A stretch of DNA of 64,000 bases from Escherichia coli (GTDB lineage Bacteria; Pseudomonadota; Gammaproteobacteria; Enterobacterales; Enterobacteriaceae). The translations under genes were made by a program, and so were the position numbers. Under the pieces are notes generated by a model. It did no database searches. It worked only from the letters and a program-made list of their open reading frames with translations, and was not told the origin of the DNA. The first letter of the stretch is position 1, and every line of letters starts with the position of its first letter. This document shows, piece by piece, positions 551-42,658 of the stretch. Location of the stretch: NCBI RefSeq assembly GCF_003334305.1, contig NZ_QOWS01000004.1; one strand, written 5' to 3'.

Positions 551-1158
551 TTAGCCTCTCCACTTTGAGCCTGCTGAAACAAGGTGAGATCGCCAAAGTC
601 CGTGTTAAAGGTCAGCTCACGCTTACGTTTGCTGACGCGGGCGATATCGGTGTTATCCACCAGATGCAGGGCTTTAGTCGGGCACATCCGCACGCAGGCC
701 GGACCTTGTTCATCAAAACTGCAAAGGTCACATTTGACGGCGATCGCGCGAATACCCGGCACCCAGTCAAGCAGCGTACTGATACGCGCCGGAGCAGGCG
801 GTGCCGGTGGCGCTTTCGGGGTATTGGCATTTGCAGGAATATCCAGCGGACGGCTGCCGGAAAATTCAATTGCGCCAAACGGGCAGGCGATGCCGCACAG
901 CTTGCAGCTTACGCACAGGCTTTCATTCAACTGCACGGCCCCATCAACGCGGGTGATGGCGTTAACCGGGCAGACCACCGCGCAGGGTGCATCTTCACAG
1001 TGGTGACAGAGCTGCGGCGCAGATTCTTTTTCATTTAGCATCACTCTCAGGCGCGGCATTGATTGCAGGCCGTGCTGGCGATGCGTCTCTGAACAGGCGG
1101 CCTCACAAGTGTGGCAGCCGATACAGAGCGTGGAGTCAGCAATTACAAAACGATTCAC
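547..1158 (-). CDS. hycB: Formate hydrogenlyase 4Fe-4S ferredoxin-type subunit HycB
   Basis: 203-aa ORF with repeated CxxCxxCxxxCP cluster motifs; synteny hycA-hycB-hycC. Confidence 0.93.
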   Translation of the reverse strand: MNRFVIADSTLCIGCHTCEAACSETHRQHGLQSMPRLRVMLNEKESAPQLCHHCEDAPCAVVCPVNAITRVDGAVQLNESLCVSCKLCGIACPFGAIEFSGSRPLDIPANANTPKAPPAPPAPARISTLLDWVPGIRAIAVKCDLCSFDEQGPACVRMCPTKALHLVDNTDIARVSKRKRELTFNTDFGDLTLFQQAQSGEAK

Positions 1159-1282
1159 CAGGCATTCCTCAGGTGATTGTCATTTTTGACGAAAACATGC
1201 CGATGAAATGTCATTTTCGACACTCATCGACACGCCCATCCCCAAACAGGCGTAACGCCTGCAAAACGGGCAAAGCCTCAGC

Positions 1283-1744
1283 TCATGCTGCCGGGCTTTG
1301 TCCCTTTACCAGTTGGCTTAAATTCACCGGCACATTGTTTTCAATGGCGGTGTATAAGCTGTCGTAAACGCCAGCGATTTTTTCGAGATAGTGTTCCAGA
1401 ACCTGTTCGCGATCGCGGATGTTGACCTTGCCATCAATCATGCCGTCAATGCTCAGTTGCGCCTGCGCAATCCGCTGTTTGTCTTCGCCATCTTTTGTTT
1501 CGACGTAATACTCGATGGTGTGGCTGTTAAAGCCATCCGCCAGGGTGACGTAAATACGAAAATGTTCAAAAAGGACGAAACAGAGTTCTTTGTCCGGCGC
1601 GCAGCTCATGGCGTGATGCAGGCGCGCTTTCGATAACGTGATCCCCTGAACCAGCGAATTGCAGTAGATGTGCCACTGGTCCTGTAGGCGACGATGCCGC
1701 TGTGCGATGTAATCGGCTTTCTCGCTTATTTCCCAAATAGTCAT
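1283..1744 (-). CDS. hycA: Formate hydrogenlyase regulatory protein HycA
   Basis: 153-aa ORF (MTIWEISEKADYIAQ...); divergent from hypA. Confidence 0.9.
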   Translation of the reverse strand: MTIWEISEKADYIAQRHRRLQDQWHIYCNSLVQGITLSKARLHHAMSCAPDKELCFVLFEHFRIYVTLADGFNSHTIEYYVETKDGEDKQRIAQAQLSIDGMIDGKVNIRDREQVLEHYLEKIAGVYDSLYTAIENNVPVNLSQLVKGQSPAA

Positions 1745-1780
1745 TGTCAGGTTACCCGTTTAACAGAGATGCCAGCTTTA

Positions 1781-1795
1781 AGCATTTTTTGTGCC
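1781..1795 (-). promoter_or_regulatory. Candidate sigma-54 (-24/-12) promoter for hyc operon
   Basis: Minus strand reads TGGCAC-N7-ATGC with GG and GC at the canonical 10-nt spacing, about 40 bp upstream of hycA ATG. Confidence 0.5.
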
Positions 1796-1851
1796 AACTT
1801 TTAATTTATTGTTATTAAAGAGATTTTTAAGCTAAAGATGAATTTCGTCGC

Positions 1852-1883
1852 CGTGTCGACGTGTCATTTCGACATCATCGACA
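1852..1883. promoter_or_regulatory. Candidate FhlA upstream activating sequence (inverted TGTCGACA/TCGACA repeats)
   Basis: Sequence tgtcgacgtgtcatttcgacatcatcgaca lies between the divergent sigma-54 promoters; FhlA is encoded in the same locus. Confidence 0.5.
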
Positions 1884-1909
1884 TTATTCACCGCAGGGAT
1901 AATCAACAC

Positions 1910-1925
1910 TGGCACAATTATTGCT
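1910..1925 (+). promoter_or_regulatory. Candidate sigma-54 (-24/-12) promoter for hyp operon
   Basis: TGGCACaattaTTGCT about 30 bp upstream of hypA ATG. Confidence 0.55.
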
Positions 1926-1955
1926 TGTAGCTGGCAATAGTTAATGGGAGGCGAT

Positions 1956-2306
1956 ATGCACGAAATAACCCTCTGCCAACGGGCACTGGAATTGATCGAA
2001 CAGCAGGCCGCAAAACACGGCGCAAAACGCGTAACTGGGGTCTGGCTCAAAATTGGCGCATTTTCTTGTGTCGAAACCAGCTCTCTTGCCTTTTGTTTTG
2101 ATCTGGTTTGCCGCGGCAGCGTGGCGGAAGGTTGTAAACTGCACCTCGAAGAACAAGAGGCCGAATGCTGGTGTGAAACATGCCAACAGTATGTGACGCT
2201 ACTGACCCAGCGCGTCCGCCGCTGTCCACAGTGTCATGGTGACATGCTACAGATTGTGGCAGACGACGGTTTACAGATTCGGCGGATAGAAATAGACCAG
2301 GAGTGA
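1956..2306 (+). CDS. hypA: Hydrogenase nickel-incorporation protein HypA
   Basis: Start chosen at MHEITLCQRALEL (116 aa) inside the 120-aa track ORF; C-terminal CxxC...CxxC zinc motif. Confidence 0.88.
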   Translation: MHEITLCQRALELIEQQAAKHGAKRVTGVWLKIGAFSCVETSSLAFCFDLVCRGSVAEGCKLHLEEQEAECWCETCQQYVTLLTQRVRRCPQCHGDMLQIVADDGLQIRRIEIDQE

Positions 2307-2309
2307 GCG

Positions 2310-3182
2310 ATGTGTACAACATGCGGTTGCGGTGAAGGCAACCTGTATATCGAGGGTGATGAACATAACCCTCATTCCGCGTTTCGTAGCGCGCCATTTG
2401 CCCCGGCGGCACGCCCGAAGATGAAAATCACCGGCATTAAAGCGCCTGAATTTACCCCCAGCCAGACTGAAGAAGGCGACCTGCATTACGGTCATGGCGA
2501 AGCGGGCACTCACGCACCGGGCATGAGCCAGCGTCGGATGCTGGAAGTCGAAATTGACGTGCTGGACAAAAACAACCGTCTGGCTGAACGCAACCGCGCG
2601 CGCTTTGCTGCCCGCAAGCAACTGGTGCTCAACCTGGTTTCCAGCCCTGGTTCCGGTAAAACCACCCTGCTGACGGAAACCTTAATGCGCCTGAAAGACA
2701 GCGTTCCGTGCGCGGTTATTGAAGGTGACCAGCAAACCGTGAACGATGCCGCACGCATTCGCGCTACCGGCACACCAGCGATTCAGGTGAACACCGGTAA
2801 AGGCTGCCATCTTGACGCACAGATGATTGCCGACGCCGCACCGCGTCTGCCACTGGACGATAACGGTATTCTGTTTATCGAAAACGTTGGCAACCTCGTA
2901 TGCCCGGCCAGCTTCGATCTCGGTGAAAAACACAAAGTGGCGGTGCTTTCCGTTACCGAAGGTGAAGACAAACCGCTGAAATATCCGCATATGTTTGCCG
3001 CCGCCTCGCTGATGCTGCTCAACAAAGTTGACCTGTTGCCGTATCTCAACTTTGACGTTGAAAAGTGCATCGCCTGCGCCCGCGAAGTCAATCCAGAAAT
3101 TGAAATCATCCTTATTTCCGCCACCAGCGGTGAAGGGATGGACCAGTGGCTGAACTGGCTGGAGACACAGCGATGTGCATAG
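2310..3182 (+). CDS. hypB: Hydrogenase maturation GTPase HypB
   Basis: 290 aa; N-terminal MCTTCGCG metal-binding motif and GSGKTT P-loop. Confidence 0.93.
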
Positions 3183-3445
3183 GCGTTCCCGGCCAGATCC
3201 GCACCATTGACGGCAACCAGGCAAAAGTCGACGTCTGCGGCATTCAGCGCGATGTCGATTTAACGTTAGTCGGCAGCTGCGATGAAAACGGTCAGCCGCG
3301 CGTGGGCCAGTGGGTACTGGTACACGTTGGCTTTGCCATGAGCGTAATTAATGAAGCCGAAGCACGCGACACTCTCGACGCCTTACAAAACATGTTTGAC
3401 GTTGAGCCGGATGTCGGCGCGCTGTTGTATGGCGAGGAAAAATAA
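3173..3445 (+). CDS. hypC: Hydrogenase maturation chaperone HypC
   Basis: 90 aa starting MCIGVPGQI (conserved N-terminal Cys); overlaps hypB 3' end. Confidence 0.85.
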
Positions 3446-4566
3446 TGCGTTTTGTTGATGAATATCGCGCGCCGGAACAGGTGATGCAGTTAATTGAGCA
3501 TCTGCGCGAACGTGCTTCACATCTCTCTTACACCGCCGAACGCCCTCTGCGGATTATGGAAGTGTGCGGTGGTCATACCCACGCTATTTTTAAATTCGGC
3601 CTCGACCAGTTACTGCCTGAAAACGTTGAGTTTATCCACGGTCCGGGTTGCCCGGTGTGCGTACTGCCGATGGGTAGAATCGACACCTGCGTGGAGATTG
3701 CCAGCCATCCGGAAGTCATCTTCTGTACCTTTGGCGACGCCATGCGCGTACCAGGGAAACAGGGATCGCTGTTGCAGGCAAAAGCACGCGGTGCCGATGT
3801 GCGCATCGTTTACTCGCCGATGGATGCGTTGAAACTGGCGCAGGAGAATCCAACCCGCAAAGTGGTGTTCTTCGGCTTAGGTTTTGAAACCACCATGCCG
3901 ACCACCGCCATCACTCTGCAACAGGCGAAAGCGCGTGATGTGCAGAATTTTTACTTCTTCTGCCAGCATATTACGCTTATCCCGACGCTTCGCAGTTTGC
4001 TGGAACAGCCGGATAACGGTATCGACGCGTTCCTCGCGCCGGGCCACGTTAGTATGGTTATCGGCACTGATGCCTATAATTTTATCGCCAGCGATTTTCA
4101 TCGTCCGCTGGTGGTGGCTGGTTTCGAACCGCTTGATCTACTGCAAGGCGTGGTCATGCTGGTGGAGCAGAAAATAGCGGCCCACAGCAAGGTAGAGAAT
4201 CAGTATCGTCGGGTGGTACCGGATGCCGGTAACCTGCTGGCGCAACAGGCGATTGCCGATGTGTTCTGTGTCAACGGCGACAGCGAATGGCGCGGCTTAG
4301 GCGTGATTGAATCTTCTGGTGTACACCTGACGCCAGATTATCAACGATTCGATGCCGAAGCGCATTTCCGCCCGGCACCGCAGCAGGTCTGCGATGACCC
4401 GCGCGCACGTTGTGGTGAAGTATTAACGGGCAAATGTAAGCCGCATCAATGCCCGCTGTTTGGTAACACCTGTAATCCTCAAACCGCATTTGGTGCACTG
4501 ATGGTCTCCTCCGAAGGAGCGTGCGCCGCGTGGTATCAGTATCGTCAGCAGGAGAGTGAAGCGTGA
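3445..4566 (+). CDS. hypD: Hydrogenase maturation protein HypD
   Basis: 373 aa with CGxH and CPVC motifs; start overlaps hypC stop. Confidence 0.93.
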   Translation: MRFVDEYRAPEQVMQLIEHLRERASHLSYTAERPLRIMEVCGGHTHAIFKFGLDQLLPENVEFIHGPGCPVCVLPMGRIDTCVEIASHPEVIFCTFGDAMRVPGKQGSLLQAKARGADVRIVYSPMDALKLAQENPTRKVVFFGLGFETTMPTTAITLQQAKARDVQNFYFFCQHITLIPTLRSLLEQPDNGIDAFLAPGHVSMVIGTDAYNFIASDFHRPLVVAGFEPLDLLQGVVMLVEQKIAAHSKVENQYRRVVPDAGNLLAQQAIADVFCVNGDSEWRGLGVIESSGVHLTPDYQRFDAEAHFRPAPQQVCDDPRARCGEVLTGKCKPHQCPLFGNTCNPQTAFGALMVSSEGACAAWYQYRQQESEA

Positions 4567-38612: not shown

Positions 38613-41312
38613 TCAACCAACCTTGCCAATCAATCCTTCCGTAGCCGAATACCCGCAACTTTCGTCATCGTTGACTAAAATCACGTTTGCCATCTCCGGA
38701 TCTTGTCGCTGTTCAATGCACCACAGCCTGAACGCCTCTCCCTCCAGTAAAGAAAACTCATCCCGATGTTTTTTCCACCAGCTTCGGCGCACTCTGACAA
38801 CGCTCATTTCCCATGCGTGAGCACCGGTGGCATAAGGCTTCACCACACCGTCAATACAGGTAGCCAGCCACAGGGAAACAGACTCCTCAGCCAGACGTGT
38901 CGACAGTTTTTCCGGGAGGTAATCGTTGATATTGGCGGCATAGCCGGGCCTGAAGTTCAGCACAAACTTTTTAGCCATTGCGCGATCGCAGTAATATTTG
39001 CCCACTTGCTCCTGCTCGCTGCGGGCAAATCCTTCCGGCATTACCACGTCCTCACCGTAGACGGATTCAATAAGAAGCCGGGCTGCGTATGGCATCTGAA
39101 TAGCACCTTGCTCACGCAGCACACGCTGCGTCAGCCAGATTCGCCCATGATCGGGATAGACAAATGCACTGTTACGCATGGCACTGCCAAACCATTCGTC
39201 GCCAGGAGAGTCGTCCCAGACGGGAGCCAGAATCAGCAATTCAGGGGGGGAACGCTCGTCCTTTCCGTCACGCTTTAACTGACCATTAATATCGCGGATA
39301 TGCCGCTGTAATCGTCCTGCTCGCTGAATCAGCAAATCAACAGGGGCCAGGTCGGAGATCATTTCGTCCAGGTCAATATCCACGCTTTGCTCAATTACTT
39401 GTGTACAAACAATGACTTGCGACGCTCTCTGTAAACTACAATATTTACCAAAGCGTGCCAGTGTCTCCGTTTCAATTCGCTGGCGATCGCTAAAAGCAAA
39501 GCGGCTATGAAAAAGTGAAAGGCTGGAAGCAGGAATGACGCCGCGGGCAAGCAGCTGACGATGAACCTTAATAGCGTCATCGACAGAATTCCGGATCCAG
39601 GCGATGCATTTCCCCTGACTTACCGCCGATTCGATACGCGCAATACACTCTTGTTCACTATGAAGCCAACCCACGCTGACGCTACGCTCAACGTCTTTGC
39701 GCGTCGCTACCCGGTGTGAGTTCACATCGGATTTCGTGACATGCGTCAGCCAGGGGTAATCATCCTTTTCCAGGAACGGAGCTTCTTGCAGGCCCTCTGT
39801 ACCCCGCGCAAAGGCAGCGACGAGTTTGTCGCGCTGCTGTTGAGATAACGTGGCAGAAAGCAAAATAACGCTGTTTCCGCCACGCGCCTGCCGCTCGATC
39901 AACCCTTCAAGAATGCACGACATGTAAGCGTCACAGGCGTGGATCTCATCAGCCAGCAGGATTTTGTTACTCAGCCCCAGAAGCCGCAGATTATTATGTT
40001 TGAACGGCATCACCGCCATCATCGCCTGATCCAGCGTGCCGACGCCAATTTCAGCCAGCAACGCCTTCTTGTTACTGTCGGCAAACCAGGCCGCACATCC
40101 CTGACTGAACGTTTGTTCATCCGGTTCTTCTGACCCGACTAAATCACCAGACCAGAGTGATTCATTAAAGCGGTCCATTAATGTGCGGGCACTATGTGCC
40201 AGCACCAGGCTGGGGCGGGATTCTGGCGAATAGAAAGCAAGCCAGGTTTTGACCAGCCGATCGTACATGGCATTGGCCGTTGCCATTGTTGGCAGACCAA
40301 AAAACAGCCCCTGAGCTTTCCCCGCAGCTATCAACCTGTGCGCCAGGATAAGCGCCGCTTCTGTTTTACCTGCGCCAGTCACATCTTCCAGAATAAATAA
40401 CTGCGGTCCTTGCTGGCTGATATCCAGATCCAGCACCTTTTGCTGTAACGGTGTCGGATTCTCAATAAAAGGAAACAGCGTATTAATTCCGTTGAAAGGC
40501 GCGACTTTTGCTTTTAGAGGAAAGACGGTTAAGGCGTTTTGAGCCTGAATTAAAGTTTTCTGCCAGTAACCTTTAATATCCATTGGGTGTGCGACGCGTG
40601 GAAAAAATCGCGTTGACGAACCCGTCCAGTCTGCGAGCACGACGGTTGCAGAGATATACCAGGAAAGGTGTTTTATAAGTTCAATGCCCTCATCATCATC
40701 CCAGAATGCGGGGATCTCTATGAGCGGAAACAGTGGTTTGATTTCAAGGAGAAAATCTCGTGCTGCAGCTTTGTCTTCAGGCAGAAAATTATCCAATTCA
40801 TCCATACGATCAGGGGGCCGACCATGATGCCCTGTCGTCACGGGCATCCACATTTCTATCACTCGCCTAAGTTTGCGCGGAGAGAGCGAAGATGAAGGAA
40901 GTAACTCCTGACATTCACTTAAATAATGATTCCACAACCAGTAGCCCAGCGTTGAATGAGAGATTTTTTCGTAATTTTTTCTGGCACCTTCCTGAATCTT
41001 GAGTTCAGGGGGCAGGTAAAGTTGTTGAAAAGAGCGGGCAAATTTTCCAATATCGTGCCAGCACAGCAACCAGGCGAAAAATTGAGCCGCCTGTTCCTTG
41101 TCAGAAATCCCTAATTGACGAAAATAATCAGCCAGCCCGAAGCAATTTCTTTTAACCATTAAATAGCCCATCGCGGCTACATCCAGCGAATGCCAGCAAA
41201 GAAGGTGATAGTCGTCGCCCCCGTCTTTCTCGCCGCGTCGGGTTTTTCCCCAGAAATCAAAAAAAGTCACAATATTTTTATCCTTCAGTAAACTTAAAGG
41301 ATATTTACGCAT
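38613..41312 (-). CDS. cas3: CRISPR-associated helicase-nuclease Cas3 (HD nuclease + DEAD/DEAH helicase)
   Basis: 899 aa; N-terminal HD motif (HDIGKF) and helicase motif GAGKTEAAL. Confidence 0.93.
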   Translation of the reverse strand: MRKYPLSLLKDKNIVTFFDFWGKTRRGEKDGGDDYHLLCWHSLDVAAMGYLMVKRNCFGLADYFRQLGISDKEQAAQFFAWLLCWHDIGKFARSFQQLYLPPELKIQEGARKNYEKISHSTLGYWLWNHYLSECQELLPSSSLSPRKLRRVIEMWMPVTTGHHGRPPDRMDELDNFLPEDKAAARDFLLEIKPLFPLIEIPAFWDDDEGIELIKHLSWYISATVVLADWTGSSTRFFPRVAHPMDIKGYWQKTLIQAQNALTVFPLKAKVAPFNGINTLFPFIENPTPLQQKVLDLDISQQGPQLFILEDVTGAGKTEAALILAHRLIAAGKAQGLFFGLPTMATANAMYDRLVKTWLAFYSPESRPSLVLAHSARTLMDRFNESLWSGDLVGSEEPDEQTFSQGCAAWFADSNKKALLAEIGVGTLDQAMMAVMPFKHNNLRLLGLSNKILLADEIHACDAYMSCILEGLIERQARGGNSVILLSATLSQQQRDKLVAAFARGTEGLQEAPFLEKDDYPWLTHVTKSDVNSHRVATRKDVERSVSVGWLHSEQECIARIESAVSQGKCIAWIRNSVDDAIKVHRQLLARGVIPASSLSLFHSRFAFSDRQRIETETLARFGKYCSLQRASQVIVCTQVIEQSVDIDLDEMISDLAPVDLLIQRAGRLQRHIRDINGQLKRDGKDERSPPELLILAPVWDDSPGDEWFGSAMRNSAFVYPDHGRIWLTQRVLREQGAIQMPYAARLLIESVYGEDVVMPEGFARSEQEQVGKYYCDRAMAKKFVLNFRPGYAANINDYLPEKLSTRLAEESVSLWLATCIDGVVKPYATGAHAWEMSVVRVRRSWWKKHRDEFSLLEGEAFRLWCIEQRQDPEMANVILVNDDESCGYSATEGLIGKVG

Positions 41313-41507
41313 ATATTAAAAATTATCTGTGATATATATCATTCAATAAAATATTTACATTATGAATAATCAAATAATTTTCATCCGTAATATATATGAA
41401 TAATAAACATAGGCATAATATTCACATAAACAATATAAATTAAAAAAGGGTGCAGGAGACCAAACCATCACAATTCAGTACGCGGGGTTTTACCCCCGCG
41501 TGGTGGC

Positions 41508-41660
41508 TACTTCTTCGATTCGTAAGCGAGAACTGCCTTAAACTCCATACCACGTTCTCTGATACTCAACTCACACAACGAGTCGCCTACCATCAGCGTG
41601 AATCCCAGTACTGTAAAACACAGCACTATGATTGCCACAAGGGCATATTTTGTCAGCATG
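41508..41660 (-). CDS. hokX: Hok-family type I toxin (50 aa), not present in the ORF track
   Basis: Manual translation of the minus strand from ATG 41660-41658, preceded by GGGAGG: [50 protein letters not shown], stop TAG. Hok/Gef signature; the hokX symbol is from memory of the K-12 cysH-cas3 gap. Confidence 0.85.
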
Positions 41661-41923
41661 TCTTGCCTCCCTGCAAAGAAGAGACTAACATTCGAATTGT
41701 TTGGGTTCGAACGTAAGCCTCAGGTTGATAGAAATATCGCCTGGGGCTTTTGTCCATCTGGAACCTCGCGAATGCTTAACGCCAGACAGCCTCAAGCACC
41801 CGACGCCATTCTATACCTGATAATTCTTCCAGCGGCGTTCACGTTTAAAATCAGGAATACTGCTCGCAAAATAAAAACGCCCCCATCATTTCTGACAGAG
41901 GCGTTTAATTTATCCGGCAATAT

Positions 41924-42658
41924 TTACCCTTCGTGCAATCCACATTCCCTTTTTAAGCCAAAGAAACGTGTTTCTTCTTCCGACATGCCAGGTTCCCATT
42001 TACGGGTTGTATGGGTATCACCGACCGATAAATATCCTTCATCCCATAATGGGTGATATTTCAGGCCATGTTTTTGCAGGTACTGATAAATAGTTCGGTT
42101 ATCCCAGTCGATAATCGGCAGCACTTTAAATACGCCACGCTGAATTGCCAGCACCGGTAAATTGGCGCGACTGCCGGATTGTTCACGGCGCAGGCCAGCA
42201 AACCAGGTTTGCGCGTTAAGTTCTTTCAGAGCCCGGTTCATCGGTTCGACTTTGTTGATGTCATTGTACTTTTCAATGCCTTCAACGCCCTGTTCCCACA
42301 GTTTGCCGTAGCGTGCTTCCTGCCAGGCGGCGCTTTCGGTAGCGCGGTACACTTTCAGGTTGAGCTTGAGTTTGTCCGTTAACTCGTCAATAAAGCGGTA
42401 GGTTTCCGGGAACAGATAGCCGGTGTCGGTGAGGATCACCGGAATATCCGGGTGAATCTGATTCACCAGATGCAGGCTCACCGCCGCCTGAATGCCAAAG
42501 CTGGAAGAAAGTACATATTCACCGGGCAGATTATCCAGCGCCCAGGCAACGCGGCCTTCAGCGTCCAGTTTTTCCAGTTCGGCGTTAGTTTCTGCCAGCG
42601 CCAGAATGCGATCTACCTTCGGCAGTTCGTTCAGGGCGTTTAGATCGAGTTTGGACAT
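41924..42658 (-). CDS. cysH: Phosphoadenosine phosphosulfate reductase
   Basis: Start chosen at [13 protein letters not shown] (244 aa) inside the 295-aa track ORF, which extends upstream across a REP element. Confidence 0.93.

Follow-up and report, generated by a model that had tools for sequence, protein, structure and literature searches.

The Toxin Gene in the cysH-cas3 Gap

The window analyzed here, a 64,000-nucleotide stretch of DNA from Escherichia coli, carries cysH and cas3 side by side on its minus strand, with the cysH stop codon beginning at 41924 and the cas3 open reading frame (ORF) starting at 41312. The initial annotation had pointed to the 611-bp gap between them, which runs from 41313 to 41923, and had read in it a 50-codon minus-strand ORF preceded by a strong Shine-Dalgarno sequence. 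Both are present. When the minus strand of region 41200-42200 was read for all ORFs of at least 20 aa, a coding sequence of 50 aa plus stop was found at 41507-41659 (minus strand); its TAG stop lies at 41509-41507, and the Shine-Dalgarno sequence GGGAGG lies at 41671-41666 (minus strand), separated from the ATG by 6 nt. The first ORF track did not show this ORF only because it had a cutoff of 60 aa. The whole gap is 100% identical to many RefSeq chromosomes, in which the ORF, likewise located between cas3 and cysH, is annotated as "Hok/Gef family protein" (WP_000956460.1). This gene is referred to below by its literature name, hokX.

A profile search bears out the earlier description of the product as Hok/Gef-like, as the peptide matches Pfam HOK_GEF (PF01848) with an E value of 3.5e-11 over model positions 1-42 of 42. 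It has the hallmarks of this family: it is about 50 aa long, has a transmembrane segment near its N-terminus, and is conserved in its C-terminal part, which includes Cys and AYE. In an alignment with HokA-E, a comparison that the initial annotation had proposed as a check, residues C14, T16, L28, E30, E39, and A45 are invariant. The closest relative is HokE of K-12, with 78% amino-acid identity, compared with 33-50% for HokA, C, D, and B and about 40-43% over the full length for plasmid Hok proteins (3596 plasmid records). The best NCBIfam matches are the HokA and Hok-family models, both with scores below the curated cutoffs (57.7 bits versus 89 for the HokA equivalog model NF007290; 41 versus 73 for the Hok subfamily model NF007279). 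HokA identity was dropped on account of this score, and the peptide falls outside the narrow NCBIfam Hok subfamily model, which leaves its membership of the Pfam family unaffected. One residue of the transmembrane segment varies among alleles: codon 15 (window 41616) encodes Phe in the window and in B strains (WP_000956460.1) and Cys in the six other sampled alleles (WP_000956458.1), Cys15 being the form in most other hokX alleles, and HokE has Leu at this position.

The sequence upstream of the gene is equally recognizable. Positions 41644-41801 (minus strand), corresponding to a conserved hok leader and sok region, match Rfam RF01794 ("sok") end to end, from model position 1 to 157 of 157, scoring 113 bits (gathering score, 59; E value, 1.4e-26); this is the sole Rfam hit across the whole window. 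Because RF01794 is oriented like the hok mRNA, the strand of the hit is that of hok and not that of Sok. Matches to ctRNA_p42d, Spot_42, and ncr952 (41866-41966) were set aside as they lie far below the gathering score and reflect the terminator hairpin of cysH, which comprises 14 pairs followed by a U-run (41866-41908).

It might be argued that the ORF and the hairpin that follows it arose by chance between two genes, or that they serve to regulate cas3 or cysH, given that an ORF of 50 aa is short, that it is located upstream of cas3, and that the cysH terminator is also within the gap (41875-41906). Such an explanation is refuted by the two profile matches, one for the protein and one for the RNA, and by the distribution of the locus, which is conserved as a discrete cassette even in strains devoid of cas genes.

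The hok mRNA and Its Predicted Folding

The probable -10 element of hok, TATAGAAT (41808-41815, minus strand), was placed 6-7 nt upstream of the conserved 5' end GGGUGC. It aligns with TATAAT of hokC and is kept in all alleles, while the sequence further upstream is variable; on reading that sequence, no good -35 element was found. A consensus promoter and terminator scan of the region left both the hok and the Sok promoters unscored; its only hits were the cysH terminator and, within hok, a single site that resembles a promoter by chance. The positions of the two promoters accordingly come from homology and from the start annotated for sokX.

The full-length hok mRNA is predicted to be about 360 nt long (41441-41801, minus strand). 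Its 5' end was placed by the start of the RF01794 match together with the alignment with hokC, hokB, and hokE, and its 3' end by the U-run after the 3' fold-back element together with the stop of homology, which is seen both in strains whose cas genes are of the E1 type and in those that lack cas genes. This boundary of the cassette is sharp, as similarity ends exactly at 41441, after the U-run, in many genomes of both kinds (cysH-hok-iap and E1-type). The transcript itself probably ends at 41442, about 40 nt beyond the hairpin that follows the stop codon. That GC-rich hairpin, CGCGGGGG-UAAAA-CCCCGCG, occupies 41481-41500 (minus strand), just as the initial annotation had placed it; it is perfect, follows directly after the TAG stop, and has no U-run after it in the sequence. 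It is probably the stem that protects the 3' end of a processed, active form of the hok mRNA.

Aligning the locus with hokE, hokC, and hokB brings out several conserved segments: the 5' end GGGUGCYUGAG, a block AAGCCCC...GAUAUUU..CUAUCAACC complementary to the Sok terminator, the start region of hok, and the post-stop hairpin. The 5' element GGGUGCUUGAGGCU (41788-41801, minus strand), which corresponds to the tac element of R1 hok, is invariant in hokX, hokE, hokC, and hokB save at 1-2 positions. The 3' fold-back element GGUCUCCUGCACCC (41448-41461, minus strand), which corresponds to fbi of R1 hok, is followed by U6 at 41447-41442, and its hokB equivalent is GGCACCCC, again followed by a U-run (UUUU).

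In the minimum-energy fold of the 361-nt RNA (41801-41441), which has a predicted energy of -132.8 kcal/mol and z = -4.26, the 5' GGGUGC..GAGGCU pairs with the 3' GGUCUC..GCACCC, so that 41801-41788 closes on 41461-41448 in the manner of the tac/fbi end pairing. Changes between alleles keep these pairs: a C-to-U change yields a G-U pair in one allele (L011), and a U-to-C change converts G-U to G-C in another (L009). Within-species variation contains almost no true compensatory changes. In the Rfam consensus, GGGUGCUUGAGGCU pairs instead with AAAAGCCCC at 41750-41743. When the last 40 nt are removed (end at 41481), the RNA is predicted to refold (z = -3.92), with a local 5' hairpin and a new hairpin whose loop, CCCAAACAA, is complementary to the 5' end of Sok. 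Both the full-length and the trimmed fold are minimum-energy predictions from a single sequence, and their ensemble frequency is 0.0001. The GGGAGG of hok is base-paired in these predictions as well as in the hairpin of the Rfam consensus.

The Antisense RNA SokX

The initial annotation had expected an antisense Sok RNA at about 41660-41860, together with an overlapping mok frame. The first expectation was roughly right. The 59-nt sokX of K-12 (b4701) maps by alignment onto 41699-41757 (plus strand), with 56 of 59 bases identical, and its start position is homologous to that of sokC. Upstream of it lies a promoter, TTGCCT and TAACAT separated by 17 nt (41663-41691, plus strand), which was read from the sequence and is identical upstream of K-12 sokX. 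It aligns with the regions upstream of sokE, sokB, and sokC and has 8 of 12 consensus matches, below the threshold of the scan. In the predicted fold of SokX (-24.7 kcal/mol, z = -4.49), the 5' tail is left unpaired and the rest forms a strong terminator hairpin with UUUUGU after it. On the sequence and the K-12 annotation, the locus thus has a cis-encoded Sok with its own promoter and terminator, overlapping the leader. RNA-seq reads on a "sok_15/sokX" element have been reported in O157:H7 EDL933 (EHEC) (PMC5331693).

Variation of the leader among alleles clusters at 41692-41716, the stretch that pairs with the 5' tail of Sok, and includes a 1-nt indel and the 3 nt by which K-12 sokX differs; no variation is seen among alleles in the region of the Sok terminator or at the start of hok. 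Any change in this variable stretch alters both partners at once. One possible cause of the clustering is that alleles or paralogues have diverged in their recognition specificity.

A Leader ORF as a Candidate Equivalent of mok

The second expectation, an overlapping mok frame, was not borne out, and a short leader ORF is found instead. In the ORF list and the alignment with paralogues, the canonical long overlapping mok frame is absent from the hokX leader; the position of the mokC/mokB start codon reads AAC in the window, and hokE likewise has no start codon there. The leader contains two nested ORFs that share one stop codon, a TGA (41655-41653) overlapping the ATG of hok in the sequence ATGCTGA. 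The longer one, of 34 codons (41653-41757, minus strand), starts with an ATG at 41757, with GAGG 6 nt ahead of it, and was considered as the equivalent of mok. It was rejected as the conserved element, as only three of eight sequences (the window, L014, and L008) have it intact, while in the other five (L009-L013) it is shortened to 18 codons. The shorter one, of 12 codons, starts with an ATG at 41691, 8 nt beyond the 5' end of Sok. This 12-codon form is identical in all eight sequences, and no Shine-Dalgarno sequence precedes it.

In every allele compared, the stop of the leader ORF lies on the hok AUG. According to PMC9841398, mok of plasmid R1 need be translated only up to the hok start region, and a leader ORF that stops on the hok AUG could serve likewise. 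The leader ORF is thus a candidate functional equivalent of mok by analogy with R1. However, since a mok-type start codon is absent and the 12-codon ORF has no Shine-Dalgarno sequence, coupling through the leader ORF is uncertain. On a less ordinary reading, hokX and hokE would form a mok-less subgroup of Hok loci run by the 12-codon leader ORF via termination-reinitiation.

Distribution and Forms of the Locus

The cysH-cas3 gap is a known locus, annotated in RefSeq and named and mapped in several papers. The locus adjacent to cysH is called hokX/sokX in PMC7232551, PMC12736100, and PMC3903273, and the first of these identifies the hok of the cysH-iap region as a homologue of hokX of E. coli B; hokX and sokX are also listed with standard toxin-antitoxin genes in PMC11598369. 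In a set of 237 urinary isolates, hok and sokX adjoin cysH in 90% (PMC12736100), and Almendros et al. (2014; PMC3903273) reported the hok sok system of the CRISPR-I locus in every strain save those whose cas genes are of the E2 (K-12-type) variant.

In our genome comparison, some part of the 371-nt hok mRNA region is matched in 5416 of 5426 complete E. coli genomes, and at least 80% of it, with an annotated Hok/Gef family protein, in 4147 of the 5426; the 3' untranslated part of hok is present in 3926 genomes. Roughly 1270 of the 5426 keep only the first 154 nt or less, as does K-12. The gene order is cysH-hok-iap in strains without cas genes and cysH-hok-cas3 in strains with E1-type cas genes, as in the window. 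With a RefSeq annotation, a name in the literature, and a presence in about three quarters of complete E. coli genomes, the locus is therefore an ordinary one.

K-12 and B strains carry damaged copies. In K-12 MG1655, the gap has only sokX (b4701) annotated, on the strand opposite to cysH and cas3. By alignment, the K-12 sequence matches that of the window almost perfectly between the cysH stop and the hok ATG, the ATG included, and is unrelated beyond it, the break in homology falling 1-3 nt after the ATG (41655-41659; about 3305 in sequence L002). It follows that the leader and sokX were kept and the toxin gene lost: K-12 retains the hok promoter, leader, sokX, and start codon, and the toxin is absent, unlike in the window, where the copy is complete. 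That E1-type and E2-type sequences part just after the hok ATG places the boundary of the cas-cassette replacement inside hok.

The B lineage, in which the locus was first named, has hokX/sokX at the same genomic position (cysH-iap or cysH-cas3), and a B-derived strain encodes the same protein as the window, WP_000956460.1. In this strain (NEBExpress, L008 3326-3500), homology stops at 41485, within the hairpin, and a transposase gene of IS421 (IS186 family) comes next; the strain belongs to a subclass of genomes whose homology breaks off at this point. With IS421 in the post-stop hairpin, the B-strain copy has lost its 3' fold-back element, whereas the window copy is uninterrupted, with no insertion sequence found in the hokX/sokX of the window. 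In K-12, IS186 lies immediately 3' of hokC and of hokE, a comparable position, and the hairpin GGGGG-N5-CCCC looks like a recurrent target of IS186. The hokA locus of K-12 has an IS element as well.

Functional Gene or Remnant

A rival reading is that the locus is an evolutionary remnant that retains hok/sok sequence and makes no toxin, hok going untranslated for want of the canonical mok start. We consider this unlikely, though several observations speak for it. The mokC/mokB-type start codon is absent from hokX (AAC) and likewise from hokE, and the conserved 12-codon leader ORF has no Shine-Dalgarno sequence. The gene was lost in the roughly 1270 genomes mentioned above at no obvious cost, the B-strain copy is interrupted by an IS element, and the five hok loci of K-12 were described as non-functional by Pedersen and Gerdes (1999), as cited in PMC7232551.

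A dead gene, however, should gather non-synonymous changes and frameshifts, and the coding sequence has not done so. A comparison of coding variation sampled seven alleles that differ by up to 5% in DNA; the 153-nt coding sequence has nine variable sites, eight of which are synonymous, the remaining one being the F15/C15 difference. The more divergent alleles, with 95-99% DNA identity, all encode WP_000956458.1. In addition, hok has a strong Shine-Dalgarno sequence, and the stop of the leader ORF stays on the hok AUG in every allele. Judged from the sequence and predicted folds, the regulatory parts also look intact: the 5'-3' fold-back pairing, the post-stop hairpin, and the promoter and terminator of Sok are all kept. 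The synonymous bias and the retention of these elements argue for purifying selection on hokX and against a dead remnant.

We put at about 85% the probability that the cysH-cas3 gap holds an intact chromosomal copy of hokX/sokX, a type I toxin-antitoxin locus of E. coli, with a mode of working that would, by analogy, resemble that of R1 hok/sok.

A Possible Relation to the Adjacent CRISPR-Cas Genes

The location next to an E1-type CRISPR-Cas cassette could hint at a functional coupling, either by read-through from hokX/sokX into cas3 or by an addiction module that guards the cas genes. The two genes lie on one strand, with some 130 nt between the predicted end of the hok mRNA and the start codon of cas3; the terminator scan found no local terminator hairpin there, so that read-through could feed cas3 expression. 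Against this, hokX/sokX persists in strains that have lost all cas genes, and coupling of either kind appears very improbable.

Cas3 itself (window 38613-41312, compared with 1157-4000 of sequence L001) has 947 aa in the RefSeq annotation of strain 120899 and 899 aa in the window. Truncation of cas3 in the window was ruled out, as both lengths end in ...GKVG and other genomes also have 899 aa, the length common to the window and other E1-type strains. The shared C-terminus means that the difference is an internal insertion or deletion. In strain E2865, cas3 is marked as a pseudogene with an internal stop.

Comparison with Known hok/sok Systems and a Proposed Mechanism

Among known systems, hokE/sokE of K-12 is the closest paralogue, with the same leader architecture and a similar Sok promoter. 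Like hokX, it has no mokC/mokB-type start codon and has an AUG just before UAGUC. There are also differences. hokE occupies another chromosomal site, adjoining ybdK, and in K-12 has IS186 downstream; its upstream AUG shares the reading frame of hok, but hokX differs by 4 nt, which makes its leader ORF stop on the hok AUG.

The hok/sok system of plasmid R1, whose mechanism is summarized in PMC9841398, shares with hokX/sokX a Hok-family peptide, the structured leader of RF01794, a cis-antisense Sok, the predicted pairing of the 5' and 3' ends, a tail of about 40 nt beyond the hairpin, and a leader ORF ahead of the toxin. However, mok of R1 has 70 codons and overlaps almost all of hok, while the leader ORF of hokX has 12 codons (34 in the window allele) and, unlike R1 mok, extends no further than 4 nt past the A of the hok AUG. 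In addition, R1 hok/sok is plasmid-borne and hokX is chromosomal, so that post-segregational killing makes no obvious sense for the latter.

On the R1 paradigm as summarized in PMC9841398, from which each of the following steps is carried over, a weak promoter would give rise to a stable hok mRNA of about 360 nt (41801 to 41441). Pairing of its 5' end with the 3' fold-back element would render the full-length mRNA inert, neither translated nor bound by Sok. Slow 3' trimming by about 40 nt, up to the hairpin at 41500-41481, would remove the fold-back element, upon which the RNA would refold and expose the leader. The short-lived 59-nt Sok (41699-41757, plus strand) would then pair through its 5' tail just upstream of the leader AUG at 41691, and this pairing would block the entry of ribosomes and mark the duplex for RNase III. 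Upon depletion of Sok, the short leader ORF would be translated through the hairpin that hides the GGGAGG of hok, ribosomes would stop at the UGA overlapping the hok AUG, and synthesis of Hok would become possible. Hok would insert into the inner membrane and collapse the membrane potential, leading to death or dormancy. In the searchable literature, no experiment on the toxicity of hokX, repression by SokX, or 3' processing was found. Candidate roles for the chromosomal copy are growth arrest triggered by stress or phage, persistence, or that of a selfish remnant.

Perspectives

The recognition of hokX in this window fills a gap left by an ORF track that is blind to genes of less than 60 codons. 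Beyond annotation, hokX/sokX is a useful marker of the boundary at which the type I-E cas cassette has been swapped or deleted in E. coli, a use already published (PMC3903273). Finally, the intact copy described here would be better suited to experiments on chromosomal Hok than are the damaged loci of K-12 or B strains.
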